Numbered from the stretch's first letter, positions 7,107 to 54,701 are shown. The stretch is 64,000 bases of DNA from Candidatus Methylomirabilota bacterium (GCA_036002485.1 DASYTI010000108.1:2053-66052); one strand, 5' to 3'. Numbers and translations are program-made. Notes: generated by a model not told the origin, from the letters alone.

Positions 7107-7117
7107 GACCGTTCCTT

Positions 7118-7305: not shown

Positions 7306-7322
7306 CGCCTTGCTTCCGGCTC

Positions 7323-13034: not shown

Positions 13035-13059
13035 CCGGGTCCTCCCGCGAAGACCGGTT

Positions 13060-24334: not shown

Positions 24335-24347
24335 GCGCCGATCCGCG

Positions 24348-38564: not shown

Positions 38565-38652
38565 GGTCGGTGCGGCACATTCTATCGAAAAGACGCGCGA
38601 TTGCTTGACAAAGGTATACCCCACCCCTAGGCTTTGACCGGGAGGCCCACCA

Positions 38653-40497
38653 ATGATCGACACCAAGACGGCGGACAGGGAGCTTCAGACGTATATCCGC
38701 CCGCAGACCTTCCCCGTGGCCATTCGGATGCTCAAGCCCGGTGAGCCCATCCCGGAGCGTGCCAAGCGCCCGGCGCGCGACTTCAAGAAGCTCAGCATGT
38801 CCTGTCAGGTCATCGACATGTCGCGTCGATACGGCTGGATGATCGCCCTCACGCGCGAAGACCACATCTGCTCGCTCGGCATCACGGCCATCGGCTTCGA
38901 CAGGCCGCTGCCCATCTACAACGTGGGCACCCTCTGCGAAGGCATGTACACGGAGACCAAGGAGGCGGGCCAGCGCTCGGAGGCCGCCATCGACAAGTTC
39001 TCCCCCGGCGAGTACGAGACCCTCCTCGTCGCCCCCCTCGATCGCGCGACCTTCGAGCCGCACGTGGTCTGTATCTACGCCAACCCCGCCCAGGTCATGC
39101 GACTGACCCAGGCCGCGCTGTGGAAGCGCGGGGGGCGGCTCGCCTCGTCCTTCGAGGGACGCGCGGTGTGCGCCGACATCATCGTGACGACCATGCAGAC
39201 GGGCGAGCCGCAGGTGATCCTGCCGTGCTCCGGCGATCGCATCTTTGGCCAGACGCAAGACCACGAGATGGCCTTCTCCATCCCGTGGGCTCGCATGGAG
39301 GAGATCGTCGAAGGCCTACGCGGCACCCACAACGGCGGCATCCGCTATCCGATCACCCAGTTCATGGAGTACGAGGCCAGGCTGCCTCCGCGCTACATGG
39401 AGGTCAACCGGCTGTGGGACGTCGAGAAGGGCAAGGCGAGCCTGACCAACCGCGATCGCGTGGTGGCTGCCTACAAGCGCTCCTTCGCCGACCGCGTGCC
39501 CGTCTACCCCATCGTGGCGTCCTTCGCGGGCACCCTGGACGGGCTGAGCATCGAGGAGTACTGCACGAGTCCGACCAAGGCCATCACGGCCATGATGAAC
39601 TACTACGAGCGCTATCAGCCCGATGTGGTCCTCGCCTACAACGACCTGGCCAAGGAGGCCGAGGCCTTCGGCTGCAAGGTCAAGTACTCCGACTACGTGG
39701 TGCCCTCGATCGAGGGACACGTGCTCGAGGACAAGGCCAACCTGGCCGCCCTGCGCATGCCGGATCCCTACAAGACGGCGCGCCTCCCCGGCTTCATCGA
39801 GCAGTGCGAGGCCCTCGTCAAGGCCGCCCCGCCCGCCGCCATGGGCGCCGTGGCCGTCGGCCCCTGGACCATCGCCATGCTCCTGCGCAATCCGGAGATG
39901 ATGCTGCTCGACACCTTCGAGGACCCGAAGTTCATCCACGACCTCATGCGGGTGACCACGGACTTCTGCAAGGTGTGGGGGGATGCCATCGCCAAGACCA
40001 AGATCGGGCTCAGCTTCTCGGAGCCCACGGCGTCGATCAGCCTCATCTCACCCGACAACTACCGCGAGTTCATCGCGCCCTACCACAAGGAGCTGGTGGA
40101 GTACTTCAAGGCCAAGAAGGTGGGCCTGACCACCCACATCTGTGGCACGACCTATCCAATCTTCGAGGACATCATCGGGTGCGGCTTCACCACGGTGTCC
40201 TTCGACCTCGACCAGCAGTCGGATCCCAAGCTCCACGTCGACCAGCTCGAGCGCTTCGTGGAGATGGTCAAGGGCCGCGCCGTGGCCATCGGCAATGTGG
40301 ACGCCACGCGCTTCGAGAAGAGCACCAAGGAGGAGATGGAGGCCGACGTCCGTCGCTGTATCGACGCGGCGGCCAAGCATTCGGGGTTCATCCTGTCGAC
40401 GTCGTGCGAGATCCCACCGCGCTCGAGCCCCGAGATCGTGAAGTGGTTCATGGATGCGGCGCACGACTTCGGTCGCTACGAGAGAGTCCTCGGCTAG
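38653..40497 (+). CDS. Fusion protein: N-terminal DUF169 domain plus C-terminal uroporphyrinogen-decarboxylase (URO-D)/MtaA-like methyltransferase-family domain
   Basis: N-terminal ~260 aa are DUF169-like (...CIYANPAQVMRL...). C-terminal ~340 aa are URO-D/MtaA/CmuA-like (VYPIVASFAGTLDGLS..., GLTTHICGTTYPIFEDII). Confidence 0.65.
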   Translation: MIDTKTADRELQTYIRPQTFPVAIRMLKPGEPIPERAKRPARDFKKLSMSCQVIDMSRRYGWMIALTREDHICSLGITAIGFDRPLPIYNVGTLCEGMYTETKEAGQRSEAAIDKFSPGEYETLLVAPLDRATFEPHVVCIYANPAQVMRLTQAALWKRGGRLASSFEGRAVCADIIVTTMQTGEPQVILPCSGDRIFGQTQDHEMAFSIPWARMEEIVEGLRGTHNGGIRYPITQFMEYEARLPPRYMEVNRLWDVEKGKASLTNRDRVVAAYKRSFADRVPVYPIVASFAGTLDGLSIEEYCTSPTKAITAMMNYYERYQPDVVLAYNDLAKEAEAFGCKVKYSDYVVPSIEGHVLEDKANLAALRMPDPYKTARLPGFIEQCEALVKAAPPAAMGAVAVGPWTIAMLLRNPEMMLLDTFEDPKFIHDLMRVTTDFCKVWGDAIAKTKIGLSFSEPTASISLISPDNYREFIAPYHKELVEYFKAKKVGLTTHICGTTYPIFEDIIGCGFTTVSFDLDQQSDPKLHVDQLERFVEMVKGRAVAIGNVDATRFEKSTKEEMEADVRRCIDAAAKHSGFILSTSCEIPPRSSPEIVKWFMDAAHDFGRYERVLG

Positions 40498-40583: not shown

Positions 40584-40976
40584 TCACCACTTGAAGGGCT
40601 TCTTCGAGGGCGGAACACCGTAGGCGCCGCGATCCCCGCCTCCGAAACCCCCGCCCCCCCGGCCGCCCCCCCGGCCACCACCCCCGCCTCGACCACCGCC
40701 TCCGCGCGGCCCGCCGCCCGAGCCGGGAGCCTTGGGCGTCGAGAGATTGACCGTCAGCTTGCGACCGTCGAGGTCCTTGCCATTCAGCTCGGAGATGGCG
40801 CGCTGCGCCTCCTCGGCCGTGGCCATCTCGACGAAGCCGAAGCCGCGGGACTGACCGGAGAACTTGTCGGTGATCACCGCCGCCGATTCCACCGTGCCGC
40901 ACTGGGCGAAATATTCCCGGAGCGTCTCGCTCGTGGTCGAATACGAGAGCCCGCCGACGTAGAGTTTCGATGCCAT
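40584..40976 (-). CDS. RNA-binding protein with an RRM domain and Gly/Arg-rich C-terminal tail
   Basis: RNP2 (LYVGGL) and RNP1 (RGFGFVEM) motifs, then a GGGRGGGG repeat tail. Start taken at MASKLYVGGL. Confidence 0.8.
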   Translation of the reverse strand: MASKLYVGGLSYSTTSETLREYFAQCGTVESAAVITDKFSGQSRGFGFVEMATAEEAQRAISELNGKDLDGRKLTVNLSTPKAPGSGGGPRGGGGRGGGGGRGGGRGGGGFGGGDRGAYGVPPSKKPFKW

Positions 40977-41124
40977 CTGGATCTCCTTCTCTTGATCTTC
41001 CGCCTTGGTGCGCGCCCCAATACTCGGAAGAGCCAATATCGGAGGCGAGGGCGCCGGCTGCGGCGCTGACGGACTCAGTCTACACCATGCATGCGCGCGG
41101 CGGCCAGACGGGTTTCTCCTCCAC

Positions 41125-41345: not shown

Positions 41346-41756
41346 CTATTGGCAGGCCGCCTTCACGGCGGCCGCCGCCCGTGCGGGTCGCGGCACGCTC
41401 ACCCGCACCGGCCGCTCGGCCTTGGCCAGGAGCTCCCGCACGTCGAAGGGTTGTCGCACCACCCGGAATCCGTGAAGCTCGTACTGCACCTGCTCGTCCA
41501 TCGCCCCGTCGGCATCGAGCCGGATGACCACGGGCACCCCGGGGATGACCGTGTCGAATAGCTTGGCCAGATCCAGGCCCGAGAGCCGCGCATGAGCCGC
41601 CTCGAGCAGAACCAGGGAGATCGGAGCATCGAGCAGGTGGCGAAGGCCGTCGCAGAAGTTGTCCGCGAAGCGAACCGCGATACCGTGCTTCAGACACTGG
41701 TTGCCGACCGTTTCGGCCAGGGCCTGATCCGTGTCCATCATCAGAATGCGTGTCAT
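41346..41756 (-). CDS. Atypical receiver-domain (pseudo-receiver) protein
   Basis: CheY-like fold (ILMMDTDQ...VLLE...), but Glu replaces Asp at the expected phospho-acceptor position. A possible sigma-54 -24/-12 element TGGCACcctacCTGCT lies upstream. Confidence 0.5.
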   Translation of the reverse strand: MTRILMMDTDQALAETVGNQCLKHGIAVRFADNFCDGLRHLLDAPISLVLLEAAHARLSGLDLAKLFDTVIPGVPVVIRLDADGAMDEQVQYELHGFRVVRQPFDVRELLAKAERPVRVSVPRPARAAAAVKAACQ

Positions 41757-41852
41757 CGGGAATCCTTTCTTTCTCTGTGAAATAACGCACAAGTATAGCA
41801 GGTAGGGTGCCAGTAGACCAAGCTCTCTAAGTCTTTGGTTCCGCAGGGGTGT

Positions 41853-43439
41853 CTAGACGGGTCTCAGGACGCGGCCGGGCAGGTTGCCGGTATGCTCCCC
41901 ATCCTTAATAACGGTGCGGCCATTGACGAGGACATGCGGGATGCCCGCCGCGTAGCGGTGAGGATCGTCGTAGGTCGCGAGGTCCAGGATGCGCTCGCGC
42001 GAGAAGGCCACGATGTCGGCCTTGGCCCCCTGCCTGATGACGCCCCGATCCCTGAGGCCCAGTCGCGCGGCGGGAAGCCCGGTCATCTTGTGTATCGCCG
42101 TCTCGAGCGAGAGCACGTGCTCGTCACGTGCGTAGCGGCCGAGCACCCGAGGGAAGGTGCCATAGCTCCGGGGATGGGGCTTGCCCTCGGCCATGGGACC
42201 GCTCGCCGCGAGCGACGAGCCGTCGGAGCCGATCATGACGCGCGGGTGGACCAGGGCACGGCGAAGGTCGGCCTCGTCGAGCTGGAAGAGAATGATATTG
42301 CCACGTCCTTTCTCTCTCTCGATCACATCGAAGGCGACCTCGACCGGGTCCTTGCCCCAGCGCTTCGCGATCTCGTCGAAGCGGAGGCCCTCAATTTCCG
42401 GACGTGACGGCGCGGAGGCGATCATGATGTCGCTCCACTCGAGGCCCCGGGCCAGGACGGGTCCCTGGGCCATGTCCGTCCGGATGCGCCCGCGCGTGGC
42501 GGGATCGCGGAGCCGGCCCAGCATGGCCTCGATGCCACCCTCGAGCACCCAGTCAGGCAGGAGCGTCCGGATGGTGGTGCTCGACGCGGTATATGGATAG
42601 ACGTCGGCCATGACGTCGAGGCCTTCGGTCCGCGCGGCATCGATCAGAGCGAGGGCGTCGCTGACTTTTCCCCAGTGAGCGCGTCCCGCGGCCTTGATGT
42701 GGCTCACCTGCACCGACAGTCCGCCCTCCCGTCCGACGCTGATGGCCTCGGCAATCGCGTCGAGGAGGGTGGCCCCTTCACCGCGGATGTGGCTCGCATA
42801 GAATCCTCCCGCGGCCGCGGCGCCCTTGGCGATTTCCACGATCTCGGCGGTCTCGGCATAGGAGCCGGGCGCATAGATGAGCCCGGTCGAGAGCCCGCGG
42901 GCGCCGTCGGCCATGGCGGCCTCCATGAGGCCCCGCATCATCGCCAGCTCCTTGGCGCTGGGCGGTCGCCGGGCGAAGCCCATGGCGGCCAGCCTCAGGG
43001 TGCCGTGACCGATCAGCTGCGCGACGTTGAGGGCGAGCCCTTCGTCCTCGTAGCGGCGAAGGAAGTCCTTGACCGAGCCCCAGGAGAAATCCATGCCGGG
43101 CGGAAGGTAGAGGGCGAAGCCCCGCATGTCCTCTCTGAACTCGGCGGATACGGGAGCGGGCGAGAACCCGCAATTGCCCACCACCTCAGTGGTCACTCCC
43201 TGGCGGATCTTGGACTCCGCGCGCCGATTGCCGAAGAGCCGCCAGTCCGAATGCGAGTGCATGTCGATGAAACCGGGGGCTACCATGAGGCCGGAGGCGT
43301 CCAGGGTCTGTCCCGCAGGCTCGCGCGCGAGGTCACCCACCGCCGCGATGCTCTCGCCGGTAATGCCGACATCCGCGCGCACCGCCGGCGTCCCCGTACC
43401 GTCGAAGACGTGGCCGCCCGTGATCTTGAGGTCAAGCAC
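41853..43439 (-). CDS. N-acyl-D-amino-acid deacylase (D-aminoacylase) family amidohydrolase
   Basis: Metal-binding HSHSD motif and amidohydrolase_3-like sequence. Likely GTG start at 43439 (8-nt overlap with the amidase gene). Confidence 0.75.
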   Translation of the reverse strand: MLDLKITGGHVFDGTGTPAVRADVGITGESIAAVGDLAREPAGQTLDASGLMVAPGFIDMHSHSDWRLFGNRRAESKIRQGVTTEVVGNCGFSPAPVSAEFREDMRGFALYLPPGMDFSWGSVKDFLRRYEDEGLALNVAQLIGHGTLRLAAMGFARRPPSAKELAMMRGLMEAAMADGARGLSTGLIYAPGSYAETAEIVEIAKGAAAAGGFYASHIRGEGATLLDAIAEAISVGREGGLSVQVSHIKAAGRAHWGKVSDALALIDAARTEGLDVMADVYPYTASSTTIRTLLPDWVLEGGIEAMLGRLRDPATRGRIRTDMAQGPVLARGLEWSDIMIASAPSRPEIEGLRFDEIAKRWGKDPVEVAFDVIEREKGRGNIILFQLDEADLRRALVHPRVMIGSDGSSLAASGPMAEGKPHPRSYGTFPRVLGRYARDEHVLSLETAIHKMTGLPAARLGLRDRGVIRQGAKADIVAFSRERILDLATYDDPHRYAAGIPHVLVNGRTVIKDGEHTGNLPGRVLRPV

Positions 43440-44778
43440 GTGGCGCTTCCTTGAAGCCGATGGCGCGCTCACACCACGCCGCGGCGGCGAAGAGGCGCGC
43501 CTCTGACCACGGAGCCCCCGTGAACTGGAAGGCAAAGGGCAGTCCGCTCGGCGCGAGTCCGGTGGGGAGGGAGATCGATGGCATGCCGGCGGAGCTCCAC
43601 GGCGCGCAGAAGGAGGCGTCGCCCGTGAAGGCCAGGCCCTTGGGCGCGGGGCCCGGCGCCGTCGGAGACACCAGCGCGTCGTAGCGCGAGGCGATGGCGG
43701 CCATGTCGGCGCGGAAGGCGCGGCGATGGGCCTGGGCGGCGAGATAGTCCACCGCCCTAACGGTTTGCCCGTCCTTGACGCGCTCGCCCAGGTGCACGGG
43801 ATACTCGGCAGCGTGGCGCGCGTAGAGATCGCGATGGAAAGCGGCCGCTTCCGCGCGCATCACCGTGTCGCCCGCCTCGGGGAGACCCTCGAAGGAGACC
43901 GCGAGTGGCGCGTCGTCGACCTGGGCGCCTGCCGCCCGGAGCGCCTTGAGCGTGGAGTCGATCTGCGCGCGATTCTCGGGCTCGGCCCGGTCGACGAGCG
44001 CGCGCAGCACCCCGAGCCGAGGCGCGGCGGGGGACGCGACGGCGCCGACATAGTCGCCGATGGGCATGGCGACGGAATGAGGATCGGCGGCATCGTGCCC
44101 GGCCATGATGGCGAGGGCCAGCGCCGCATCCTCGACGGAGCGGCACAGGACGCCGACATGATCCAGGCTCCACGCCAGCGGCACCACGCCGACGGCGCTG
44201 ATGCGCCCATGCGTCGGCTTGAAGCCCACGACGCCGCAGTAGGCGGCGGGCCGCAGCACCGAGCCCACCGTCTGGGTGCCCAGGGCGAGCGGGGCCATCC
44301 GGGACCCTACGACGGCTCCCGAGCCACTCGACGATCCGCCCGGCGTGTGCGCGGGATTCCACGGGTTCCCCGTCTCCGTCGGATCACGGAAGGCAAAGGC
44401 CGTCGTCGTGACCTTGCCGAGAATCACCGCGCCGGCCGCTCGCAGTCTGGCCACCGACACCGCATCGACGGTGGCCCGACGATGCGCCCACGGCCCCGCG
44501 CCGGCGGTCGTCACGAGACCCGCGGCGTCATAGATGTCCTTGAGGGCCACGGGGACGCCGTGGAGCGGGCCCATGAATCGCCCCTCGCGCGCCTCGATGT
44601 CCCGCTGCACGGCGACGCGCGCGGCGGCATCGCGGTCGAGATGCACCCAGGCCTTGAGAATGGGCTCGAGGGCGTCGATACGCTTGAGGCAGGCGGCCAG
44701 AAGATTGGAGGGCGACAGGGCGCCCGAGCGAATGCGGCGCGCCGCCTCGGCGGCGGTCACGTCATTGAGATCGGCCAT
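43432..44778 (-). CDS. Amidase (amidase-signature family)
   Basis: AS motif GGSSSGSGAVVG with Ser-cisSer-Lys catalytic-triad context. GGAGA RBS. Confidence 0.8.
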   Translation of the reverse strand: MADLNDVTAAEAARRIRSGALSPSNLLAACLKRIDALEPILKAWVHLDRDAAARVAVQRDIEAREGRFMGPLHGVPVALKDIYDAAGLVTTAGAGPWAHRRATVDAVSVARLRAAGAVILGKVTTTAFAFRDPTETGNPWNPAHTPGGSSSGSGAVVGSRMAPLALGTQTVGSVLRPAAYCGVVGFKPTHGRISAVGVVPLAWSLDHVGVLCRSVEDAALALAIMAGHDAADPHSVAMPIGDYVGAVASPAAPRLGVLRALVDRAEPENRAQIDSTLKALRAAGAQVDDAPLAVSFEGLPEAGDTVMRAEAAAFHRDLYARHAAEYPVHLGERVKDGQTVRAVDYLAAQAHRRAFRADMAAIASRYDALVSPTAPGPAPKGLAFTGDASFCAPWSSAGMPSISLPTGLAPSGLPFAFQFTGAPWSEARLFAAAAWCERAIGFKEAPRA

Positions 44779-44802: not shown

Positions 44803-46644
44803 CTACTGAAGCGCGTCCAAGACTTCGGCCACGACTTCGAAGCGCCCGAAGGAAGGCATGAGATAGGCACCGGCATAGTGGCCCCGAAGGTGGCGAACGA
44901 GCTCCTGCGCGGTCTCGATCCCGACGCGAAGGCCCCGCTCGCCCGCCTCGCGCATGCGTCCACGGACGGCGTCGGGAATGGTGATTCCCGGCACCTCGTT
45001 GTGCAGGAACTCGGCATGACGGGATGAATGCAGCGGCAAGAGGCCCACGACCACCGGAATGGGTGGGCGCGTGCGAGCGAAGAACCGCTCCAGCACCTCC
45101 AGATCGTAGATCGGCTGCGTCTGGCACCAGCGGGCGCCCGCCTCGGCCTTGGCGAGGAAGCGCTCCATCTCCCGGGCAGGATCGGCCGCCGCGGGATCGA
45201 GGGCCGCTCCCACGCAGAACGCCGTGGGCTCGCCGACGGAGTTGCCCGTGGCATCCCGTCCCTCGTTCATCTCCGACAAGATGCGGATGAGCCCGATGGC
45301 GTCGACGTCGAACACCGCAGTGGCGTTGACGTAGTCGCCGCCCCGGGGCGGATCGCCCGTCATGGCCAGGATGTTCCTGATATCGAGGGCGTGAGCGCCG
45401 AGCACGTCGGCCTGGATGCCCATGAGGTTCCGGTCGCGACTCGTGAAGTGCATGTTGATGTCCAGCCCCGTGGCCTCGCGCACGAGAATGGCCGTGGGCA
45501 GCACCGACATGCGCACGCGTCCGAGGGAGCCGTCGTTGATGTCCACGATCTCGACCCCGCGCTCCTTGAGGAGCTTGGCCCCCTGGACGAGCTTCTCGAT
45601 ATTGTGCCCGCGCGGGGGATCGAGCTCGACCGTCACGAGGAACTCCCCCGCCTCGAGCTTGCGCTGCAGCAAGGTCGGGGCGGCCGTGGTGACGAGGGCC
45701 GGCGTCTCGCGTTCGATCCGCGCGCGTCGTGGCGCGGCCGTCCGGTCACTCCGGCTCGGCACGTGGCGATCCACCGCCTCTCGCATGGCGCGGATATGAT
45801 CGGCCGTGGTGCCGCAGCAGCCACCCAGGAGACGGGCGCCCGCTCCGATCATCCGCGCGGCGAACTCGGCCATGTAGGCGGGCGAGGAGACATAGATGAG
45901 TCGCTCGCCGATGCGCGAGGGCAGGCCGGCATTCGGCTGGATGCTCACGGGCAGCCCGCCCGCCTCGGGCAGCATCTGCTCGAGCACCTCGTACAGCGTG
46001 CTCGAGCCGACGGAGCAGTTGGCGCCGAGCCCCTGGATGGGCAGCTCGCGCAGCGTCCTCGTCACCTCGGCGGGTGTGCTGCCGAGGAACGTCACGTGAT
46101 CCTGGGTAAAGGCTACCGACGCGATGACGGGCAGATCAGTGATGGCCCGGATGGCCTCGACGGCAAGTCTCAGCTCCTGGAGGTCGGAGAAGGTCTCGAC
46201 CATGAAGGCGTCCACGCCGCCCTCCAGCAGCCCTTCGGCTTGCTCGGCGAAGGCGGCCCTCGCCTCCTCGCTCGTGATCGATCCCAGCGGGGCCAGGTAC
46301 TTCCCCAGCGGCCCGATGGAGCCGAGGACGAAGACGTCGCGGCCCAGGGTCTCGCGCACGTCCCGCGCCAGCTTGACGCCTCGCAAGTTGATCTCGCGCA
46401 CCTGCGCGGCGAGGCCGTGGACGCCCAGCTTGAAGCGATTGGCGCCGAAGGTATTCGTCTCGATCCAGTCGGCTCCGGCCTGGATGTACTCGGCGTGAAT
46501 GCCCTGGACGATCTTGGGCTCGTTGACGTTCAGCACATCGAAGCAGGCATCCAGCGGCACGCCACGCGCATACAGCATGGTGCCCATGGCGCCATCGCCC
46601 AGCAGTGGATGCTTGGCCAGCCGCTCGAGGAAGGGCGCGCTCAT
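44803..46644 (-). CDS. Bifunctional homocysteine S-methyltransferase-domain / 5,10-methylenetetrahydrofolate reductase (YitJ-like)
   Basis: N-terminal PF02574-type domain with Zn-site GGCCGT. C-terminal MetF domain (LVTVELDPPRG...). ATG at 46644. Confidence 0.8.
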   Translation of the reverse strand: MSAPFLERLAKHPLLGDGAMGTMLYARGVPLDACFDVLNVNEPKIVQGIHAEYIQAGADWIETNTFGANRFKLGVHGLAAQVREINLRGVKLARDVRETLGRDVFVLGSIGPLGKYLAPLGSITSEEARAAFAEQAEGLLEGGVDAFMVETFSDLQELRLAVEAIRAITDLPVIASVAFTQDHVTFLGSTPAEVTRTLRELPIQGLGANCSVGSSTLYEVLEQMLPEAGGLPVSIQPNAGLPSRIGERLIYVSSPAYMAEFAARMIGAGARLLGGCCGTTADHIRAMREAVDRHVPSRSDRTAAPRRARIERETPALVTTAAPTLLQRKLEAGEFLVTVELDPPRGHNIEKLVQGAKLLKERGVEIVDINDGSLGRVRMSVLPTAILVREATGLDINMHFTSRDRNLMGIQADVLGAHALDIRNILAMTGDPPRGGDYVNATAVFDVDAIGLIRILSEMNEGRDATGNSVGEPTAFCVGAALDPAAADPAREMERFLAKAEAGARWCQTQPIYDLEVLERFFARTRPPIPVVVGLLPLHSSRHAEFLHNEVPGITIPDAVRGRMREAGERGLRVGIETAQELVRHLRGHYAGAYLMPSFGRFEVVAEVLDALQ

Positions 46645-46645
46645 C

Positions 46646-47221
46646 TCACTCAGAAATTGATCCCTCTCCCCCCTTGGGGGAGAGGGCAGGGTGCGGGGGT
46701 CGGGCCCGCACACGAAGCGCCCTGAGCACCTCCGCCGCGACCTGGTCGGGGTTGAGGCGCGTCGTGTCCACACTCAGATCAGCCTTGGCGTAGAAGGGTT
46801 GGCGGGACTTGTAGAGCGTCTCGATCTCCTCGCGTGTCTTGCCTTGGAGCATCGGCCGATCGCCGCTTCTGAGCGCTCGCTCGCAGAGTGTCGGGAGATC
46901 GCCAGACAGCCAGACGACCGTGCCCAGGGCCTGGAGAGCTTCCACGCGCCCCTCCTGGCACGGCAACCCGCCGCCCGTGGCAATGACCTCTCCACGCTTG
47001 AGGGCGAGAAGCCGCACCGCCTCGTCCTCGAGGGCGCGGAAGTGCGGCTCGCCCTTCACCGTGAAGATCTCGGGGATGGGGCGCCCCTCCTTGGCGGTGA
47101 TCATGTCGTCGGTCTCGACGAAGCAGCGGCCCAGCCGCTTGGCCAGGAGCCTCCCGACCGAAGACTTGCCCGCTCCCATGAATCCCACGAGGATCACGTT
47201 GTCATCCATGTCACCGGCCAT
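46646..47221 (-). CDS. aroK: Shikimate kinase
   Basis: P-loop ILVGFMGAGKSSVGRLLA. A palindromic hairpin CCCTCTCCCCC-TTGG-GGGGGAGAGGG overlaps the 3' end. Confidence 0.8.
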   Translation of the reverse strand: MAGDMDDNVILVGFMGAGKSSVGRLLAKRLGRCFVETDDMITAKEGRPIPEIFTVKGEPHFRALEDEAVRLLALKRGEVIATGGGLPCQEGRVEALQALGTVVWLSGDLPTLCERALRSGDRPMLQGKTREEIETLYKSRQPFYAKADLSVDTTRLNPDQVAAEVLRALRVRARPPHPALSPKGGEGSISE

Positions 47222-47247
47222 CGTATCACCGGAAGTCGGTGATATCC

Positions 47248-47988
47248 CTATCGGTGCACGGTGGCGACGGCAGGGGCGCGGCGGTAGGCGCAGTCGCGCA
47301 TCCAGCAGCGCCGGCACTGGGTGAAGTAGTGGTCCACGCGGGCCTCGGGTCCGATGCCCACGAGGATCGAGATGCTCTTGCCGGGCGTCATGACACACGA
47401 GTCATTGAGCGTCACCCCGATGGGCTCGCCCGGGCAGAGGTGGAAGAGCGCGGCCTGCTCGGCCGTGTCCCAGCCCGCATAGCCAGGGCTGATTCGATTG
47501 GTGACCTTCAGGCCGGCGGGAAGCGCCGCCTGGCACAGGAGGTCATTTATGTATTCGGCCAGGCTCTCCACCGCCGCCGAGCCGACGCTGTCGAGCATCA
47601 CGGCGAGCGGGAGCTCGCGCTCCTCCCAGAGCGACCGCACGCGATCTTCGATGGCGGCGCCCACCGTGCAGATCCCCGCCCCCACCGCCTCCAGCACGCC
47701 CCACAGCCTGCTGATCTCGGGGATGTGCAGATCTTCACCGCCCGCCTGGATCAGATCGAGCCCTTGCCCGGTCACCCCCGCCGCGCGGTAGACGAAGCGC
47801 GGATCCATGAGCGATTCGCCGAGGGCCAGTGCCTCGTCGAAGAGCGCAAGCACGGTTGCATCCGGGATGTCGCGGCCCTTCTTGTAGCCCTGGAAGCGCA
47901 GGACGTCTTGGGGATCTACGCGGAGGGACAAGCAGCGGCGGTCGAGGGTGACGGGAACGGGCGAGCGGACGTCGAGCGCCGCGCTCAC
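47248..47988 (-). CDS. Stand-alone methionine-synthase reactivation (AdoMet-binding activation) domain protein
   Basis: Met_synt_B12-like with SAM motif RISPGYAGWD. The GTG start overlaps the TGA of the upstream HMT gene (GTGA). Confidence 0.7.
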   Translation of the reverse strand: MSAALDVRSPVPVTLDRRCLSLRVDPQDVLRFQGYKKGRDIPDATVLALFDEALALGESLMDPRFVYRAAGVTGQGLDLIQAGGEDLHIPEISRLWGVLEAVGAGICTVGAAIEDRVRSLWEERELPLAVMLDSVGSAAVESLAEYINDLLCQAALPAGLKVTNRISPGYAGWDTAEQAALFHLCPGEPIGVTLNDSCVMTPGKSISILVGIGPEARVDHYFTQCRRCWMRDCAYRRAPAVATVHR

Positions 47989-48911
47989 GGCGGCGAGCGG
48001 CGGGAGCGCGCGACCTCGGCGATCAAGCGGATATGCTCCGGCCCCGAGCCACAGCAAGCGCCCACGATATTGCAGCCGGCGTCGAGCAGTGCCGGGTAGT
48101 CCTTGGCCATGGCCTCCGGCCCGAGCTCGTAGGTCGTCGTATCGCCCTTGGTGATGGGGAGCCCCGCGTTGGGATAGGCGATCAGCGGGGCCTCGGTGAC
48201 CGCGCGCATCTCACGGATGATGACGATGGCGCGATCCGGGCCCCGACCGCAGTTCATGCCCACGATGTCCGCCCCCGCGTCGAGCAGAGTCCGTGCCACC
48301 TCGGCCGGACTCTCGCCCCACATGGTGCGGTCACGGTCGTGGATCTCTTCGTACTGGAAGAACATGGTCGCCATCACGGGCAGATCGGCGGCCGCCTTGC
48401 AGGCCTTGATGGCGCCGATGGCCTCCTGGGGAAACATCATGGTCTCCACCGCGAAGATGTCCACTCCGCCCTCGGCCAGGGCCTCGGCCTGTTCCTTGAA
48501 GGTGGCGAAGTACTCGTCGTCCGTCGCGACGTTGTCGCCCACGCCGTAGTCCACGGGCAGGCAGCTCGTGGGGCCGATGGAGCCCGCGACAAAGCCGCCC
48601 GACGGACACACCGAGCGGGCGAGCCTGGCACCCTTGTCGTTGAGCTCCCGGGTGCGATCGCCGATCTTATACTCGTTGAGCTTCAGACGCGTGCCGCCGA
48701 AGGTATTGGTCTCCACGAAGTCCGAGCCGGCCTTGAAATAGCCCTCGTGAATCCCGCGCACGATATCGGCGTGAGTGTCGTTCCAGAGCTCCGGGCAGCC
48801 GCCGTTGCTGAGCCCGGCCGCGAAGAGGGCCGTGCCATAGCCGCCGTCGAAGACGAGGCGCTCCCCCGCCTTGGCGCGCTCCACGATCTCCCAGCCGCGC
48901 GGCCGGGCCAT
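47985..48911 (-). CDS. Stand-alone homocysteine-binding-type Zn-dependent thiol methyltransferase (MetH module 1-like, PF02574)
   Basis: 308 aa with a GACCGSGP zinc site and MetH Hcy-domain-like sequence. ATGA overlap with the corrinoid protein gene. Confidence 0.75.
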   Translation of the reverse strand: MARPRGWEIVERAKAGERLVFDGGYGTALFAAGLSNGGCPELWNDTHADIVRGIHEGYFKAGSDFVETNTFGGTRLKLNEYKIGDRTRELNDKGARLARSVCPSGGFVAGSIGPTSCLPVDYGVGDNVATDDEYFATFKEQAEALAEGGVDIFAVETMMFPQEAIGAIKACKAAADLPVMATMFFQYEEIHDRDRTMWGESPAEVARTLLDAGADIVGMNCGRGPDRAIVIIREMRAVTEAPLIAYPNAGLPITKGDTTTYELGPEAMAKDYPALLDAGCNIVGACCGSGPEHIRLIAEVARSRRSPP

Positions 48912-49573
48912 CAGGTGGCCGCGGCCACGCCGAGAAGCTCCTTGGCGCGCGTCACCGCGATGGTCGAATCCCTGGCGTACCCGTCGGCGCCGATCTCGTC
49001 GGCATAGGCCTGGCTCACGGGGGCGCCGCCGATCATCACCTTGACGCGCTCGCGCAGCCCGGCCTTGGCGAGGGCGTCGATGGTGCGCTTCATGGCGGGC
49101 ATGGTCGTGGTCATGAGGGCCGAGATCCCGACGATCTGGGCCCCGTGCTCCTCCACCGCGGCCACGAACTTCTCCGGCGCCACGTCGCGCCCGAGGTTGT
49201 GGACCTTGAACCCCGCGCCCTCGAGCATCATGGCCACCAGGTTCTTGCCGATATCGTGGAGGTCGCCTTGCGCGGTGCCGATCACGATGATCCCCAGCGA
49301 CTGGCCGTCGCCCCCCGCCTTGGTGATGAGGGGCTTGAGGAGATCGAGCCCCGCGTACATCGCGCGCGCGGAGAGGAGGACCTGCGGCACGTAGTACTCG
49401 TTGCGCCGGAACTTCTCTCCGACCACGTCCATGCCCGGGATCAGTCCTCGGAAGATCAGATCCTTGGGATCCATGGCGAGGGCGAGCCCTTCCTGGGTCT
49501 TGCGGGCCACCGTGTCCTTGTCGCCCAGGATCAGCGCCCTCGACATGATCGGGTAGTCGAAGTCATCGCTCAT
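48911..49573 (-). CDS. Cobalamin-binding corrinoid protein (B12-binding cap plus Rossmann domain)
   Basis: DxHxxG motif (GDLHDIGKN) and MtaC/MetH B12-domain-like sequence. Start taken at MSDDFDYPIMSR. Confidence 0.8.
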   Translation of the reverse strand: MSDDFDYPIMSRALILGDKDTVARKTQEGLALAMDPKDLIFRGLIPGMDVVGEKFRRNEYYVPQVLLSARAMYAGLDLLKPLITKAGGDGQSLGIIVIGTAQGDLHDIGKNLVAMMLEGAGFKVHNLGRDVAPEKFVAAVEEHGAQIVGISALMTTTMPAMKRTIDALAKAGLRERVKVMIGGAPVSQAYADEIGADGYARDSTIAVTRAKELLGVAAAT

Positions 49574-50973
49574 GCGTCGTTCGTGGCTCCTCCGGGCTTG
49601 ACCGTGGAATAGCCTGCCTTGACCCACTCTCGCATGCCGCCGGCCACATTGTAGCAGTCGGTCAATCCCGCCCGCCGGAGGGCGCTGATGACCGAGCTGG
49701 ATCGGAGCCCGCCGGCGCAGAGCACGGCCTTGGGGCGATCCGCGGGCAGCTCACCCAAACGCGAGAGGGCCTGGCTCATCGGGAAATTGACGGCTCCCGC
49801 GATGTGCCCGTCGTCCCATTCGGTGGCTTCCCGCACGTCGACCACGACCAGATCGGGCCGCTCGTCCCGCATGGTGGCAAGATCGTGCACGGTGATCTGC
49901 GGCACGCTCGCATGAGGCAGCCCTTCGCTCTTCCAATCCGTCATGCCACGCTGGAGATAGCCGAGGATGTCGTCCATGCCCGCGCGTCCGAGCGCCTCGA
50001 CGCTGCGCTGGAGGTCTGACGGGCCCGCGGCCACCAGGACGAAGCGGCTATCGACTGGGGCCATCATGGCCACCCGCGGCGCGAAGGGACTGCTCTCGAT
50101 CCAGACATTGATGGCACCCGGAATGTGGCCGTCGCCGAACTCGGCCGGGCTGCGCACGTCGAGGATGACGCCCCCCTTGGCCATGGCCTCGCGCGCCTGC
50201 GCGGCAGAGAGCGGCTGAAACTCGCCCGTGGAGGGAAGGGCCTGGGCCCGGTTGCGCGCGATGATGCGGTCGAAGCTCGGCGGCTTCGGCGGCAGCCCCG
50301 TCATGAGCTCGCGCACGAAGGCCTCCACCGTTGCCGGCTGCAGGGCGGGGTTGAAGCGGCGCTCGAACCCGATGGTGGAGCCGGGCTTGGAGGACATCGC
50401 TCGCCCGCACGAAGACCCTCCGCCATGGGCGGGATAGACTTCCACGCTGTCGGGCAGCGTGAGCACGCGGCGGGTCAGGCTCTCGAAGAGATCGGCGGCT
50501 GCCCGCTCGCCGCCGAAGTCCGGTCGCCCGACGTCGCCCACGAAGAGCGTGTCACCGGTCAGGATGAACCACGGCTCTTCTCCACGCGACAAATCGGTCA
50601 CGAGCAGGCAGACGCTGTCCGGGGTATGTCCCGGGGTGTGGATGACCTGCACCCGCACCGTACCGAACCGGATCTCGTCCCCGTGCTCGATCGGCGTATG
50701 GGGAAACGCGGCCTCGGCCGCGGGATGAATGTGCACCCGGGCGCCGACCTTTGCGGCCAGGCTCTGGTTGCCCGAGATATGGTCGGCGTGGACGTGGGTG
50801 TCCACGATGTGGGTGAGCTCGAGCCCCTTGCGCCGGGCCCACGCCGCGTAGTCGTCGACCCGGTCCCGGGCGGGGTCGACCACGAGGGCCTGCCCCGCCT
50901 GGCTGCAGGCGATCAGGTAGGAGATGCAGCCGGCATCCTCGTTGAGGATCTGCTGAAAGATCATCGGTCGCAT
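49570..50973 (-). CDS. Persulfide dioxygenase (ETHE1-like MBL fold) fused to two rhodanese domains
   Basis: HxHxDH motif (HVHADH) and MBL fold, followed by two rhodanese modules with active-site Cys (CAGGLRS). ATGA overlap with the corrinoid protein gene. Start uncertain (50973 or 50964). Confidence 0.75.
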   Translation of the reverse strand: MRPMIFQQILNEDAGCISYLIACSQAGQALVVDPARDRVDDYAAWARRKGLELTHIVDTHVHADHISGNQSLAAKVGARVHIHPAAEAAFPHTPIEHGDEIRFGTVRVQVIHTPGHTPDSVCLLVTDLSRGEEPWFILTGDTLFVGDVGRPDFGGERAAADLFESLTRRVLTLPDSVEVYPAHGGGSSCGRAMSSKPGSTIGFERRFNPALQPATVEAFVRELMTGLPPKPPSFDRIIARNRAQALPSTGEFQPLSAAQAREAMAKGGVILDVRSPAEFGDGHIPGAINVWIESSPFAPRVAMMAPVDSRFVLVAAGPSDLQRSVEALGRAGMDDILGYLQRGMTDWKSEGLPHASVPQITVHDLATMRDERPDLVVVDVREATEWDDGHIAGAVNFPMSQALSRLGELPADRPKAVLCAGGLRSSSVISALRRAGLTDCYNVAGGMREWVKAGYSTVKPGGATNDA

Positions 50974-51120
50974 CTTCCCACACGGACTCACCACGACGCA
51001 AGGTGGCCTTGGATAAGGCTTCTGGAAGGACGATTGTGGGTAACTTGACCCAGAATCGGCTGGTAGACTAGACTCTGCGGAGTTTAAACTCGGCCCTACG
51101 GGAGGCTATCGGCAGTCGCG

Positions 51121-51885
51121 ATGAAGATCAAAGTCCTTGGCTCGTTCGGAAGCGAGGGGCAGGGACAGCGACCCTCAGCATTTCTCGTAGACGACAAGGT
51201 CCTGGTGGACGCCGGCACCGTCGGGGGCGCCCTCACGCCCGCCGAGCAGATCGAGGTCGAGTACGCGCTGGTCAGCCACGCCCATTTCGATCACATCGCC
51301 GGCCTGGCCTTTCTTACCGACACCTTGGCCATGATCGCGCCCGAGCGTCGGGTGACCGCATGCAGCATCGGGCCCGTGCTCGACAGCCTTCGAACCCATG
51401 TCTTCAATGACGTGGTCTGGCCAAATTTCGCCAATATCCCCGATCCGAAGAATCCCGTGCTGGCCTTCCGCACCCTCGCCGAAGAAGGCGAGGCGCGAGT
51501 GGGCGAGCTCTGGGTGACCCCGGTGCCCGTGGACCATACCATCCCCACCACGGGCTTCGTGGTCCACGACGGAGAGACGGGCTTCGTGTTCAGCGGGGAC
51601 ACGGGGCCGACCAAGCAGATCTGGAAGCTCGCGCGCGAGATGCGAGGGATCAAGGCGGTCATCGTGGAGACGTCCTTCCCCAACCGAATGGACGCGCTGG
51701 CGAAGACGTCCGGACACCTGACCCCGGAGATGCTCAAGCGCGAGCTCGACAAGGCGCCTCCGGACATTCCCGTCTGGATCTACCACGTCAAGCCGCAGCT
51801 GTACCAGGAAACCGTCGAAGAGCTCGCCAAGATCGACTCCACCCGCATCCACATCCTCGAGCAGAGCAAGACCTACACGCTGTAG
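51121..51885 (+). CDS. Class II 3',5'-cyclic-nucleotide phosphodiesterase-like MBL-fold hydrolase
   Basis: HAHFDH motif and PF02112-like sequence. Confidence 0.65.
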   Translation: MKIKVLGSFGSEGQGQRPSAFLVDDKVLVDAGTVGGALTPAEQIEVEYALVSHAHFDHIAGLAFLTDTLAMIAPERRVTACSIGPVLDSLRTHVFNDVVWPNFANIPDPKNPVLAFRTLAEEGEARVGELWVTPVPVDHTIPTTGFVVHDGETGFVFSGDTGPTKQIWKLAREMRGIKAVIVETSFPNRMDALAKTSGHLTPEMLKRELDKAPPDIPVWIYHVKPQLYQETVEELAKIDSTRIHILEQSKTYTL

Positions 51886-51922: not shown

Positions 51923-52774
51923 TCATCCACGGGAGGCGGGCTCGAAGAGAAACTCCGTCAGGTAGGTGTTGACGGTGGCCGCGTGCTCGATCTGCGGGAA
52001 GTGCCCGCACCGGTCGAGCCACTTGGCGGTGGCGAGATCGAGTCCCTGGCTCACCTGCCGTGCGTGGGCCAGCGGGATGACGGCGTCCTGGAGCCCGTGG
52101 ACGAGCAGGATGGGCCGCCGGAACCTGAGCAGTCCCTCCCGGTAGAGCTGGGTGTGCTCCGTGAAGTCCTCCCGGACCGAGCGCAGGAGCGAGAGGTAGG
52201 CTGCCCGGCCATCGAGAGAGGCGCGGACCGCGAACTCGTGCTCCACGAAGAAGCGAATCTCCTCGGGATCGGGCGAGACGAAGCAGCGCTCGAGCGCCGT
52301 CGCGCAGATCCCGCGCGTGATGAGCCTCGAGAGAAGCTCGCCGATCCCCGGCAGGGACAGCGTCCGGTACACCCACGAGGGCCGGAGGGGAAACCCCGGC
52401 ACGGCGGAGGCGAGGAAGGCCAGCCGCTCGACGCGGGCCGGGTGAGCCACGGTGAAGCGGGCGGCCACGGCGCCGCCCATGGAGTGGCCGACCAGGCGCA
52501 CCTGCTCGAGGCCCAGCTTGCGGAGGAATGCCTCGAGGACCTCGGCCAGGAAGGTCAGGGTGTACGCGCGGCGGGGCTTGCCGGATTTCCCGAAGCCCGG
52601 CAGGTCCAGGGCGATCACCCGGCCGTGGCGTCCCAACTCGGGGATGGTATGGCGCCAGGACTCGGCAAAGCCGCCCAGGCCGTGGAGAAGCACGGTAGCC
52701 GGCCCCTGCCCCTCCGAGAGGTAGTGCAGAAGAAGCCCGTCGAGCTCGCCGCCCGTGAGCCGGAGGTGCGCCAC
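51923..52774 (-). CDS. Alpha/beta hydrolase
   Basis: GHSMGG nucleophile elbow and HGLGG oxyanion region. Confidence 0.75.
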   Translation of the reverse strand: MAHLRLTGGELDGLLLHYLSEGQGPATVLLHGLGGFAESWRHTIPELGRHGRVIALDLPGFGKSGKPRRAYTLTFLAEVLEAFLRKLGLEQVRLVGHSMGGAVAARFTVAHPARVERLAFLASAVPGFPLRPSWVYRTLSLPGIGELLSRLITRGICATALERCFVSPDPEEIRFFVEHEFAVRASLDGRAAYLSLLRSVREDFTEHTQLYREGLLRFRRPILLVHGLQDAVIPLAHARQVSQGLDLATAKWLDRCGHFPQIEHAATVNTYLTEFLFEPASRG

Positions 52775-52776
52775 GG

Positions 52777-53772
52777 TCAGGAATCGAGGAGTCGCGTCAG
52801 CGCGTCGCGGAACGGAAAGACACTGAAGATACCGCCGGTGTGGATGAAGCAGACACGCTGGCCGAGCGCCTTGGGGTCGCGCTCGAGCGTGTGGAGAAGC
52901 CCGCCGAAGGCCTTGGCCGTGTAGACGGGATCGAGCATCAGGCCTTCCTCACGCGCCAGACGGATCACGAGGGAGAGCTCCGCGTCGTCCACCCCGGCCC
53001 GTCCCATTCCCTGGTAGCCGTCCAGAAGATGGATGCTCTTCGGCACCTCGATGGCGAAGCCGAAGCGACGGATGGCCTTCCCGATGGTGTCGCTGACATA
53101 GCTGCGCACGCGCTCGGCCGGGAACGCGATGGGGATGCCCACGATCTCCGAGGGCAGCCCGGCGAGCTGCTTGCCCATGAGGAGCCCGGCCTGGCTGCCC
53201 CCGCTGAAGCACGTCAGGGCCACCGTGTCGAAGCGCGGCGCCCCGTGGGTGATCTGCTCCGCGAGCTCGACGGCGCATTCGAGGTAGCCGAGCGCCCCCA
53301 GCTCGTTGGAGCCGCTCTCGGGAATCACATAGGGCTTGCCCCCGACGCGCCGGACGTCTTCGGAAATCGCTTCGAGGGTGCCCGCGGCCTGGCGGAACTG
53401 GTCGTCGGTGAGATACCGCACCTCGGCGCCCAGCATCCGGTCCAGGAGGAGGTTTCCGTCATAGGTATCGGGCCGGCCGCCCTTGACCGCGAGGACGGCA
53501 CGGAGACCAAGGCGCGCGGCCACCGCCGAGACAGCGCGGCAGCAGTTGGACTGGAGCGTCCCGATGGTGATGAGGGTGTCGGCGCCCTGGGCGAGGGCAT
53601 CGCCGACGAGGAACTCGAGCTTGCGGACCTTGTTGCCGGATTCGAGGAGGCCGGTCAGATCGTCACGCTTGACCCAGAGCTCGACCCCCAGCCGCCGCGA
53701 CAGCCGCTCGAGCTTCATGACCGGCGTGGGCGCCAGGGCCAGCTCGATTCGCGCGGGCGTGATCGTCACGCT
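52777..53772 (-). CDS. PLP-dependent D-cysteine desulfhydrase / ACC deaminase family protein
   Basis: PALP-family sequence (WVKRDDLTG...SGNKVRKLEFL). Likely GTG start at 53772; the upstream part of the raw ORF is junk. Confidence 0.7.
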   Translation of the reverse strand, partial: SVTITPARIELALAPTPVMKLERLSRRLGVELWVKRDDLTGLLESGNKVRKLEFLVGDALAQGADTLITIGTLQSNCCRAVSAVAARLGLRAVLAVKGGRPDTYDGNLLLDRMLGAEVRYLTDDQFRQAAGTLEAISEDVRRVGGKPYVIPESGSNELGALGYLECAVELAEQITHGAPRFDTVALTCFSGGSQAGLLMGKQLAGLPSEIVGIPIAFPAERVRSYVSDTIGKAIRRFGFAIEVPKSIHLLDGYQGMGRAGVDDAELSLVIRLAREEGLMLDPVYTAKAFGGLLHTLERDPKALGQRVCFIHTGGIFSVFPFRDALTRLLDS

Positions 53773-53858
53773 TCCAATCCTAACACCGGCGCCTATGAAT
53801 GCCGCATTCCCGGCAGCGGCACGAGGCGGCCACGGAGCTGCAGGTCGAGGACGGCCCT

Positions 53859-54701
53859 CTAGCCCACCTTCTTCGCCACCGCCGCGTACTGATCCAGCAA
53901 CGGCAGCACGGTGCCGGCCAGCGCGGACGGGACGAAGAAGACCACGCGTGCCACGCCCATGTCGCGCCACCCGGCGAGCTTGCCCTCGTCGGGCCGCACC
54001 CCGAAGAGCGACACCGTCACCGTGGCCGGGTCGCGCCCGGCCTTTTCCGCGCGCTGGCGCAGATCAGCCATGGCTTCATCCAGAGGATCGCGCCCGATGA
54101 TGGGCATCCAGTGCCCGTCGAACTCCGCGGCGCGCTGACGCGCGTGCGGGCCGCTGCCTCCCATGAGGATGGGCGGGTACGGCTTCTGGACGGGCTTGGG
54201 GTATGACCAGAGCTTGTCGAAATTGACGTACTTCCCGTGGTACTGCGCCTCCTCCTGCGTCCAGATCGCCTTCATGGCCGCGATGCGCTCGCGCAGGATC
54301 TTCCAGCGATCGCTGAACGGCGTCCCGTGGTCCTCCATCTCCTCGGCGTTCCAGCCCCCGCCGATGCCGAAGAGGACGCGCCCCCCGGAGATGAAGTCCA
54401 GGCTCGCGACCTCCTTGGCGAGAATGATGGGGTCGCGCTCGATCACCAGGCAGATGCCGGTGCCGAGCATGAGGGTCCTGGTCACCGCGGCCGCTGCGCC
54501 CAGCGCGACGAAGGGGTCGAGCGTGTGCCAGTAGTCGCGCGGGAGATCGGCCCCGCCGGGCCATGGGCTCTTGCGGATGACGGGGATATGCGTGTGCTCG
54601 GGGAGCCACAGCGACTCGAAGCCGCGCGCCTCAAGCTCGCGGGCCAGAGCATCCGTGGGGATCGCATAGTCGGTCGGGAACATCGCGACGCCGTATTTCA
54701 T
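53859..54701 (-). CDS. LLM-class F420-dependent / flavin-dependent oxidoreductase (luciferase-like)
   Basis: Luciferase-like monooxygenase TIM-barrel sequence (MKYGVAMFPTDYAI...). Confidence 0.75.
   Translation of the reverse strand: MKYGVAMFPTDYAIPTDALARELEARGFESLWLPEHTHIPVIRKSPWPGGADLPRDYWHTLDPFVALGAAAAVTRTLMLGTGICLVIERDPIILAKEVASLDFISGGRVLFGIGGGWNAEEMEDHGTPFSDRWKILRERIAAMKAIWTQEEAQYHGKYVNFDKLWSYPKPVQKPYPPILMGGSGPHARQRAAEFDGHWMPIIGRDPLDEAMADLRQRAEKAGRDPATVTVSLFGVRPDEGKLAGWRDMGVARVVFFVPSALAGTVLPLLDQYAAVAKKVG

Follow-up and report, generated by a model that had tools for sequence, protein, structure and literature searches.

How is a methyl group brought to homocysteine in a bacterium in which the parts of a cobalamin-dependent methionine synthase are encoded as separate proteins, and in which the part that should bind the methyl donor is not found next to the others? 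This question is raised by a 64-kb stretch of DNA from a Candidatus Methylomirabilota bacterium (GCA_036002485.1, DASYTI010000108.1:2053-66052; GC content ~68%), here termed the window, in which eight genes of the minus strand follow each other in the same direction from position 50964 to position 41853. The first of them encodes a CstB-type persulfide dioxygenase (PDO) with two rhodanese domains, and the next three encode a stand-alone corrinoid carrier, a stand-alone zinc homocysteine S-methyltransferase of the MetH type (HMT), and a protein that corresponds to the S-adenosylmethionine (AdoMet)-binding reactivation domain of MetH (ACT). In our reading, to which we assign a probability of roughly 70%, a modular, i.e. 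split, cobalamin-dependent methionine synthase would have its carrier, its acceptor and its repair protein encoded together at this locus, and its donor module somewhere else in the genome.

The three central proteins carry this reading. The corrinoid protein (48911..49573, minus strand) has the architecture of the B12 module of MetH, with the cap domain PF02607 (B12-binding_2, 77.7 bits), the Rossmann domain PF02310 (B12-binding, 108.7 bits) and the motif series DxHxxG...SxL...GG, which begins with GDLHDIG. Its segments GDLHDIGKN, SALMT and IGGA align with the region of E. coli MetH that includes His759, Asp757 and Ser810, and the protein keeps the region of the His-on ligand triad. It is a methyltransferase-cognate carrier: among NCBIfam models, it scores 213.8 bits with pyl_corrinoid and 209.7 bits with both MtgC and MtbC, versus 130 bits with MetH, and its best relative in the PDB is 1y80, a corrinoid protein from Moorella (4e-63), followed by MttC and MtmC, with MetH at a lower rank. 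In case of the HMT (47985..48911, minus strand), a PF02574 barrel (232.6 bits) is combined with Cys/Cys-Cys zinc ligands (aligned with C247/C310/C311 of E. coli MetH; segments GMNCGRGP and GACCGSGP) and with the DGG and ETNTF motifs of a homocysteine-binding barrel. These two motifs, as well as NC..GP, PNAGLP and CCG, align with E. coli MetH, and the best PDB matches are the homocysteine domains of MetH (8g3h, 8ssc, 1q7m), which rank ahead of BHMT. The HMT would thus be the methyl-acceptor module that produces methionine.

The third protein, ACT (47248..47988, minus strand), matches PF02965 with 32.8 bits (cut-off 25) and is matched by phmmer to TM0269 (1j6r), with which it has the sequence RISPGY in common. 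An AlphaFold2 (AF2) model of ACT with a pLDDT of 87.9 reaches a TM score of 0.81 on 1j6r, and all 19 of the 19 Foldseek matches at E<=0.001 are MetH activation domains. The fold of PF02965 and the RxxxGY motif of a reactivation domain are therefore both present, and AdoMet binding is predicted. Four cysteines, C152, C225, C228 and C233, are invariant in 78 Rokubacterial sequences, the last three forming a C-terminal CX2CX4C that is widespread in the family of PF02965 proteins (4751 representatives at E<=1e-3, mostly stand-alone). A metal or an Fe-S cluster, through which electrons would enter, may be bound at this Cys4 site. The CX2CX4C segment is modelled at low confidence, and neither TM0269 nor E. 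coli MetH has such a site. Among the orthologues, the corrinoid protein (median identity 87% across 69 sequences) and the HMT (81%) are the most conserved, with medians of 67% for ACT and 70% for the PDO. The initial annotation, which was made from the sequence of the window alone, had already described a three-part set resembling a split MetH, and its domain assignments are borne out by Pfam, by the PDB relatives and by the motifs.

The genes are closely packed. As read from the sequence, the PDO and corrinoid genes overlap by 4 nt (ATGA), the corrinoid and HMT genes by 1 nt (TGATG), and the HMT and ACT genes in a GTGA; the ATGA/GTGA start-stop overlaps that had been claimed for all these junctions are thus present at the first and the third of them, whereas the corrinoid/HMT junction is of a different kind. 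Between the remaining genes of the operon, the spacing varies from an overlap of 8 nt to a gap of 24 nt. On identical metagenome contigs, the JGI gene calls give equal lengths for the five genes from the PDO–rhodanese gene to the aroK-like kinase gene. We place the start of the PDO gene at 50964, with an ATG 9 nt upstream (50973) as alternative start. No terminator-like site was detected within the operon, and the scan for promoters and terminators, which is uninformative at 68% GC, gave three weak promoter-like sites. The intergenic region 50965..51120, between the PDO gene and a divergent gene, is the presumed promoter region of the operon; the sole promoter-like match in it (51045-51074) is on the plus strand and points toward the divergent gene, and the scan found no promoter-like site on the minus strand ahead of the operon. 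An Rfam search of 46500-51300 gave no family at threshold, and the search with an E-value threshold returned chance matches to snoRNAs only.

The core is retained throughout the lineage. In 80 loci from species-representative genomes, all of the Rokubacteria/Methylomirabilota type and a few with implausible bin labels, the order corrinoid–HMT–ACT is found at every locus that covers the region. An aroK-like gene follows ACT in most loci, some of which have additional genes between the two, for an AI-2E transporter, a molybdo-hydroxylase or a 2Fe-2S protein. A YitJ-type gene is likewise present in most of the orthologous loci, though some lineages do not have it there. The genes that replace the PDO gene or are inserted elsewhere (CHASE2-cyclase-PilZ, FecR, AI-2E transporter, Mo-hydroxylase) are unrelated. 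In the literature on Rokubacteria together with methionine synthase or corrinoid, and on DUF169, we found nothing that bears on this locus, the terms being mentioned in other contexts.

What is missing is the donor. A methyltetrahydrofolate (methyl-THF)-binding module, as expected for a split MetH, was seen neither in the window nor in 84 orthologous Rokubacterial loci, which were searched over ~10 kb around the core genes (less on short contigs). Pfam scans of 57 open reading frames (ORFs) of the window gave no match to PF00809 or PF06253, and six-frame tblastn searches of the window and the 84 loci with the pterin domain of E. coli MetH, two stand-alone pterin-binding proteins, MttB and RACo all remained negative, which agrees with the earlier statement that the window holds no pterin-binding PF00809 module. 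RamA-like proteins (PF14574) and DUF1638 also had no Pfam match in the scans of the window, in line with the negative RACo search.

Split or modular B12-dependent methionine synthases have been recognized only recently, mainly in marine Alphaproteobacteria. In Phaeobacter inhibens, the pterin module of a three-part MetH is encoded at a separate locus (Price 2018, PMC5764234), and further splits of MetH have been catalogued in GapMind (10.1101/741918). In Ruegeria pomeroyi, a single corrinoid protein of the MtgBCDE system serves both the demethylation of glycine betaine and the synthesis of methionine (Mausz 2025, PMC12478193), and for MtgCDE the pterin module is again encoded at a separate locus (PMC12478193). 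Like these systems, the Rokubacterial locus has its Mt_C-type corrinoid protein and its PF02574 HMT as two separate proteins, its donors are probably encoded elsewhere and able to share the carrier, and it belongs to a cobalamin-dependent organism. There are, however, clear differences. Reactivation in Phaeobacter and Ruegeria is accomplished by a RamA-like protein (DUF4445/RACo) together with DUF1638 and does not involve PF02965, whereas here a PF02965 protein with a Cys4 site is part of the operon and neither RamA/RACo nor DUF1638 is found near the triad of the window. The corrinoid protein stays well below the cut-offs of the MtgC models (209.7 and 208 bits with NF047995 and NF047996, cut-offs 310 and 370), MtgB (PF06253) and MtgD (PF00809) are absent from the window and the 84 loci, and the operon additionally contains a YitJ-type fusion, joined in half of the species by a PDO–rhodanese gene. 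A stand-alone PF02965 protein with RISPGY is also known from Thermotoga (TM0268 + TM0269), Clostridia and Bacteroides, where it likewise stands beside a methionine synthase and often beside a gene for methylenetetrahydrofolate reductase (MTHFR), but in those organisms one protein of ~790 aa comprises the HMT, pterin and B12 domains, whereas the Rokubacterial operon has one gene for the corrinoid protein and another for the HMT, and no pterin domain is encoded at the locus.

The YitJ-type HMT–MTHFR fusion of the operon (44803..46644, minus strand) combines PF02574 with PF02219 and matches NF006396 over residues 4-612 with 687.5 bits (cut-off 453), with zinc and homocysteine motifs kept. As a gene for MTHFR is thus part of the operon, and as the pterin modules of Phaeobacter and Ruegeria are encoded at separate loci, the donor is probably a methyl-THF (pterin)-binding protein encoded elsewhere in the genome. 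The cycle could then proceed as follows. The corrinoid protein, whose ligand motifs are seen, would bind cobalamin in a base-off/His-on mode, and a separate methyltransferase encoded outside the operon would methylate its Co(I) form, with the possibility that a DUF169–MtaA-like enzyme encoded nearby, or others, feed the same carrier. The HMT, with its zinc and homocysteine motifs in place, would form methionine by methylating zinc-activated homocysteine at the expense of methyl-Co(III). ACT would bind AdoMet and re-methylate the cob(II)alamin that arises by occasional oxidation, and YitJ would supply the methyl-THF. A role of ACT as catalytic donor that transfers methyl groups from AdoMet to the corrinoid was considered and rejected, as this would only cycle AdoMet to methionine without any net synthesis. 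We also rejected the idea that YitJ alone acts as a MetE-like direct methyl-THF:homocysteine transferase, for which there is no evidence; B. subtilis, which has YitJ, still requires MetE.

Several observations weigh against the split methionine synthase with an unlinked donor. The corrinoid protein is by its scores nearer to the methylotrophic Mt_C proteins than to the B12 domain of MetH, and the searched loci contain no methyl-donor module. The presence of two HMT paralogues in one operon is left without explanation. Moreover, the adjacency of the PDO gene, with a 4-nt overlap or a short gap, is kept across species whose PDO proteins are 60-95% identical, which hints that co-expression is under some selection.

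Split or modular MetH, stand-alone activation proteins, YitJ and CstB-type fusions were already known. What is new is a four-way split throughout a soil phylum, in which carrier, homocysteine module and PF02965 repair protein would work with a donor encoded elsewhere, together with a PDO gene that has joined the operon in one lineage and a conserved DUF169–MtaA-like neighbour. Annotation pipelines would call such genomes MetH-less.

Relatives of ACT in other phyla, which were reached with a distant member of the family as query, show what kinds of partners such a protein can have. Three loci contain an operon of the order corrinoid–HMT–ACT–MttB (L094, 5391-9128; L095, 5218-9146; L089, 5454-9163, the last fragmented by frameshifts). 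The order of the triad is identical to that in the window, and its members share 41%, 35-39% and 32-36% identity with their counterparts there. The loci belong to a soil clade that includes a protein labelled Candidatus Krumholzibacteria. Unlike in the window, the fourth gene encodes a non-Pyl donor methyltransferase of the MttB family, i.e. of the quaternary-amine type, and PDO, aroK and YitJ genes are absent there. This arrangement suggests a direct synthesis of methionine from a quaternary amine. Other loci combine ACT with corrinoid proteins and URO-D-type methyltransferases (EutA-like–ACT–corrinoid–URO-D in L088, with an HMT 2 kb away; ACT–corrinoid–URO-D in L097), with both URO-D and pterin-binding genes (corrinoid–URO-D–RACo–ACT–pterin-binding in L091), with a pterin-binding gene and RACo (pterin-binding–ACT–RACo in L092) or, on clostridial plasmids, with metF and a short MetH (metF–ACT–short MetH). 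At two loci, L090 and L093, no corrinoid, HMT or donor genes were seen near ACT.

The cultured, aerobic soil bacterium Gemmatirosa kalamazoonensis KBS708 has on its plasmid 1 a strand-contiguous cluster URO-D–corrinoid–RACo–ACT–HMT (L176; NZ_CP007129.1, 921.6-927.8 kb), whose corrinoid protein is 50% identical to that of the window and whose other members include an ACT homologue as well as an HMT, with no pterin module within 9 kb. It differs from the window by the ATP-dependent activator RACo and by a Cys-rich C-terminal extension of ACT, and in its URO-D-type methyltransferase an HxC zinc motif is, by eye, not evident. Sugar-acid genes (GH2-like, UxuA-like) stand ahead of the operon. The cluster has the appearance of a demethylase-type system with homocysteine as the recipient of the methyl group. 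Because the ACT neighbourhoods in other phyla hold corrinoid and donor genes, the TM0269-like protein is a general component of modular corrinoid methyltransferase systems, i.e. a widespread partner also of those that are not MetH, and the HMT can act as acceptor module together with an MttB-type or URO-D-type donor. With its complete related operon, the cultured Gemmatirosa offers a route to experiments.

What alternatives exist for a methyl-THF-binding donor encoded elsewhere? One candidate lies within the window and had been overlooked by the initial annotation. About 7 kb from the methionine triad, convergent with the operon, a gene on the plus strand (38653..40497) encodes a 614-aa fusion of DUF169 (PF02596, 201 bits) with a zinc methyltransferase domain of the URO-D family (PF01208, 202.5 bits), the only other corrinoid-type methyltransferase in the window. 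Such an enzyme of the MtaA/MtsA type could load the corrinoid protein independently of folate, after which the HMT would pass the methyl group on to homocysteine; candidate donors would be a methyl-thioether (dimethyl sulfide, methanethiol, methylmercaptopropionate (MMPA)), a methoxy compound or a methyl halide, and in the lineage with the PDO this enzyme would dispose of the sulfane or sulfide from a sulfur donor. The URO-D domain is indeed MtaA/CmuA-like (122.2 bits with TIGR01463, below its cut-off of 235.4, versus 40.5 bits with hemE), and it keeps the HxC...C zinc ligands, with THICG and STSCE aligning to the HIC and GC residues of MtaA (4ay7). The fusion gene adjoins the 3' end of the operon, beside the operon-side genes and convergent to them, in 21 of 21 Rokubacterial metagenome loci with >=7.5 kb of downstream sequence, and in one divergent lineage it is only 1.5 kb away from HMT–ACT. 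Its best 120 homologues, Rokubacterial by label, are 83-93% identical. The nearest URO-D relatives that were found outside the Rokubacteria are 31-35% identical and share an operon with ACT and a corrinoid gene in both L088 and L097; the one in L088 has the same zinc motif, an HMT gene 2 kb away and a corrinoid protein 52% identical to that of the window. The Gemmatirosa cluster and the lack of pterin or MttB genes near any of the Rokubacterial loci searched would fit this as well.

On the other hand, the fusion gene is convergent and not co-transcribed with the operon, with at least one RRM gene in between, and its proximity could be explained by the synteny of the phylum alone. DUF169 and URO-D genes also occur as pairs in L100 and L101 without a corrinoid, HMT or ACT gene within 8 kb, and a stand-alone DUF169 gene on a Cupriavidus plasmid, the one match in cultured organisms, lies by an acyl-CoA ligase gene and does not hint at a link to corrinoids. 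In addition, the MTHFR in the operon suggests methyl-THF as donor, and there is no sulfide:quinone oxidoreductase (SQR) that could form the persulfide substrate of the PDO. An AF2 model of the fusion (mean pLDDT 55.9, shallow alignment) was too poor for use. We regard the folate-independent loading of the carrier as possible but, on balance, unlikely, and the DUF169–URO-D protein as a credible alternative or additional donor that is not an established part of the system. The folate-independent variant that had been offered as a second option by the initial annotation gains a precedent in the operons with MttB and URO-D donors elsewhere, while the donor for the Rokubacterial locus stays a candidate. 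In most Rokubacterial loci, a gene for the RRM_1-domain protein (40584-41036, minus strand, 81 bits) separates the fusion gene from the 3' end of the operon, and a PF13769 'Virulence_fact' ORF (38274-38666, minus strand) adjoins the fusion gene divergently on its other side.

Is the PDO a functional partner of the methionine synthase, or does it simply share its transcript? The protein (49570..50964, minus strand; Lactamase_B 59.8 bits, two Rhodanese domains 110.8 bits) is, by its domain order, a predicted CstB-like persulfide dioxygenase–sulfurtransferase that consists of a metallo-beta-lactamase (MBL) domain, an inactive rhodanese-like domain and a catalytic rhodanese domain. Its best structural relatives are 3tp9 (254 bits, 2e-74), 3r2u (203 bits, 6.5e-59), BpPRF (5ve3, 141 bits), the Myxococcus PDO (4ysb, 124 bits) and ETHE1 (4chl, 87 bits), with glyoxalase II (GloB, 63 bits) ranking below all of these. 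In 28 orthologues, the motifs HxHxDH, HTPGH, TGD and PAH and the Cys loop CAGGLRSS (CAGGxRSS) of the C-terminal rhodanese are kept, the middle rhodanese having no Cys. An N-terminal ETHE1-like MBL domain followed by rhodaneses, of which the last has the catalytic Cys loop, is common to CstB of S. aureus, BpPRF and 3tp9, but the PDO gene heads a putative methionine-synthase operon here and is not accompanied by SQR, CstR or TauE-type sulfide-stress genes, and the protein scores below the cut-off of the NCBIfam Blh model (65 vs 625 bits).

Directly 5' of the corrinoid gene, in the same direction and with a spacing of -4 to +66 nt, the PDO gene is found in 28 of ~63 informative loci, plus three with frameshifted copies, and it is absent from this position in ~32 loci. 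In the latter, the corrinoid gene starts ~50 nt from the divergent MBL gene, or genes for CHASE2–adenylate-cyclase–PilZ (with or without FecR) lie in between. The tight coupling of the PDO gene on which the initial annotation had built thus exists in the window, as its ATGA overlap demonstrates, but it is no property of the whole system: of the synteny proposed for related genomes, corrinoid–HMT–ACT is found wherever the region is covered, and the PDO gene only in part of the loci, although within its clade it stays co-directional. Its absence from orthologous loci is one of the outcomes that the initial annotation had itself named as refuting its view. Because it is upstream in only about half of the informative loci, the PDO–rhodanese is a clade-specific accessory outside the invariant core of the operon. 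In one Rokubacterial sub-lineage its gene lies between the presumed promoter and the corrinoid gene, where it would be co-expressed without a mechanistic role in methyl transfer.

A functional tie within that clade would be compatible with the split methionine synthase, as the PDO would not need to be a step of the pathway. It could, for example, protect the Zn-thiolate site, homocysteine or cob(I)alamin by clearing persulfides or sulfide, or share its regulation with the metabolism of sulfur amino acids. The close adjacency in 28 species with PDO proteins of 60-95% identity and the conserved catalytic motifs speak for such a tie, as does a PLP enzyme of the D-cysteine-desulfhydrase family, a possible source of H2S, encoded 2 kb upstream. 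Yet about half of the loci do without the PDO gene, and where, in some lineages, additional genes (clusters c25, c41 and c50) separate the PDO gene from the divergent MBL gene, these have no Pfam match or DinB_2 and show no link to sulfur. Furthermore, the accessible parts of the literature that names PDO and methionine synthase together, mostly reviews on sulfur metabolism and one genome report, describe no such gene linkage. We therefore consider the functional tie doubtful.

These elements can be combined into a farther-reaching proposal, namely that Rokubacteria make methionine without a folate-binding methyltransferase, with the DUF169–URO-D protein loading the corrinoid from a donor other than folate, be it a methylated sulfur compound or something else, the PDO of the sub-lineage oxidizing the sulfur by-product, and PF02574 HMTs serving in aerobic soil bacteria as acceptor modules of demethylase-type corrinoid systems; as a whole, this is improbable. 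If the donor were indeed not a folate, environmental methyl groups would pass directly into methionine in abundant soil bacteria, and the salvage of B12 would be tied to one-carbon and sulfur cycling. Finally, the main idea of the initial annotation, that the HMT demethylates a methanethiol- or MMPA-like methylated thiol and thereby loads the corrinoid protein, with the PDO–rhodanese as obligatory sulfide sink, could appeal to the translational coupling of the PDO gene, to the pterin module not found in the window and to the chemical reversibility of methyl transfer between thioethers, but it is highly improbable because the motifs of homocysteine-specific MetH domains, DGG and ETNTF, are intact in a protein whose best structural matches are such domains, and because the PDO is dispensable in about half of the species, whose loci keep corrinoid–HMT–ACT unchanged, quite apart from the fact that the corrinoid protein would then have no acceptor module and that the operon has no SQR.

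The remaining genes of the locus are less directly connected to the split methionine synthase. Pfam and NCBIfam confirm the domains of the first four genes as they had been annotated, and also the presence of the aroK, YitJ-like, amidase and D-aminoacylase-like genes downstream. The aroK-like kinase (46646..47224, minus strand; PF01202, 145.8 bits) has the shikimate-kinase fold and stays below the cut-offs of all NCBIfam shikimate-kinase equivalogs (best 147 vs 186 bits). It also resembles the shikimate-kinase-like homoserine kinase of Desulfovibrio (NF040667, 107 bits, cut-off 197), and the substrate may be other than shikimate. The YitJ gene is followed by a gene for an amidase-signature enzyme (43432..44778, minus strand; PF01425, 304.4 bits), which is syntenic in 48 loci, and by the last gene assigned to the operon, which encodes a D-aminoacylase-like metallo-hydrolase of the Amidohydro_3 type (41853..43439, minus strand; PF07969, 113 bits; NF006560, 226 bits with a cut-off of 340) and is syntenic as well. 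A response-regulator-like ORF (41346..41790) continues in the same direction 62 nt beyond it.

At the other end, the divergent gene (51121..51885, plus strand) encodes an MBL-fold protein resembling class-II cyclic-nucleotide phosphodiesterases. This gene faces away from the operon in nearly all loci, and genes for CHASE2–adenylate/guanylate cyclase–PilZ proteins (e.g. L050, 2902-4992) are often inserted in the lineages without PDO. Further upstream, three genes on the minus strand (51923-54701) encode an alpha/beta hydrolase, the pyridoxal phosphate (PLP) enzyme of the D-cysteine desulfhydrase/CuyA family and an F420-dependent LLM oxidoreductase. With TIGR01275, this PLP enzyme scores 289.2 bits (cut-off 289.4), and it could release sulfide locally.

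The two cobalamin riboswitches (7133-7309 and 13059-13252, both minus strand) and the genes for corrinoid salvage and uptake that had been noticed before are present (1228-13252 and 23582-24418, with CobQ, CbiB, TonB, CbiZ, a BtuB-like receptor, BtuC/F-like proteins, CobT, CobU and CobS); neither riboswitch precedes the methionine operon, and both control other operons.

Nine of the species-representative loci (L009, L015, L018, L022, L024, L026, L027, L031 and L036) come from metagenome-assembled genomes labelled as Nitrosocosmicus, Acidoferrum, Nitrosotalea, Binatia, Verrucomicrobiia, Deferrimicrobiaceae, Limnocylindria or Dormiibacterota. All nine are typical Rokubacterial loci with the same synteny and an ACT 72-76% identical, and their implausible labels are probably binning errors.

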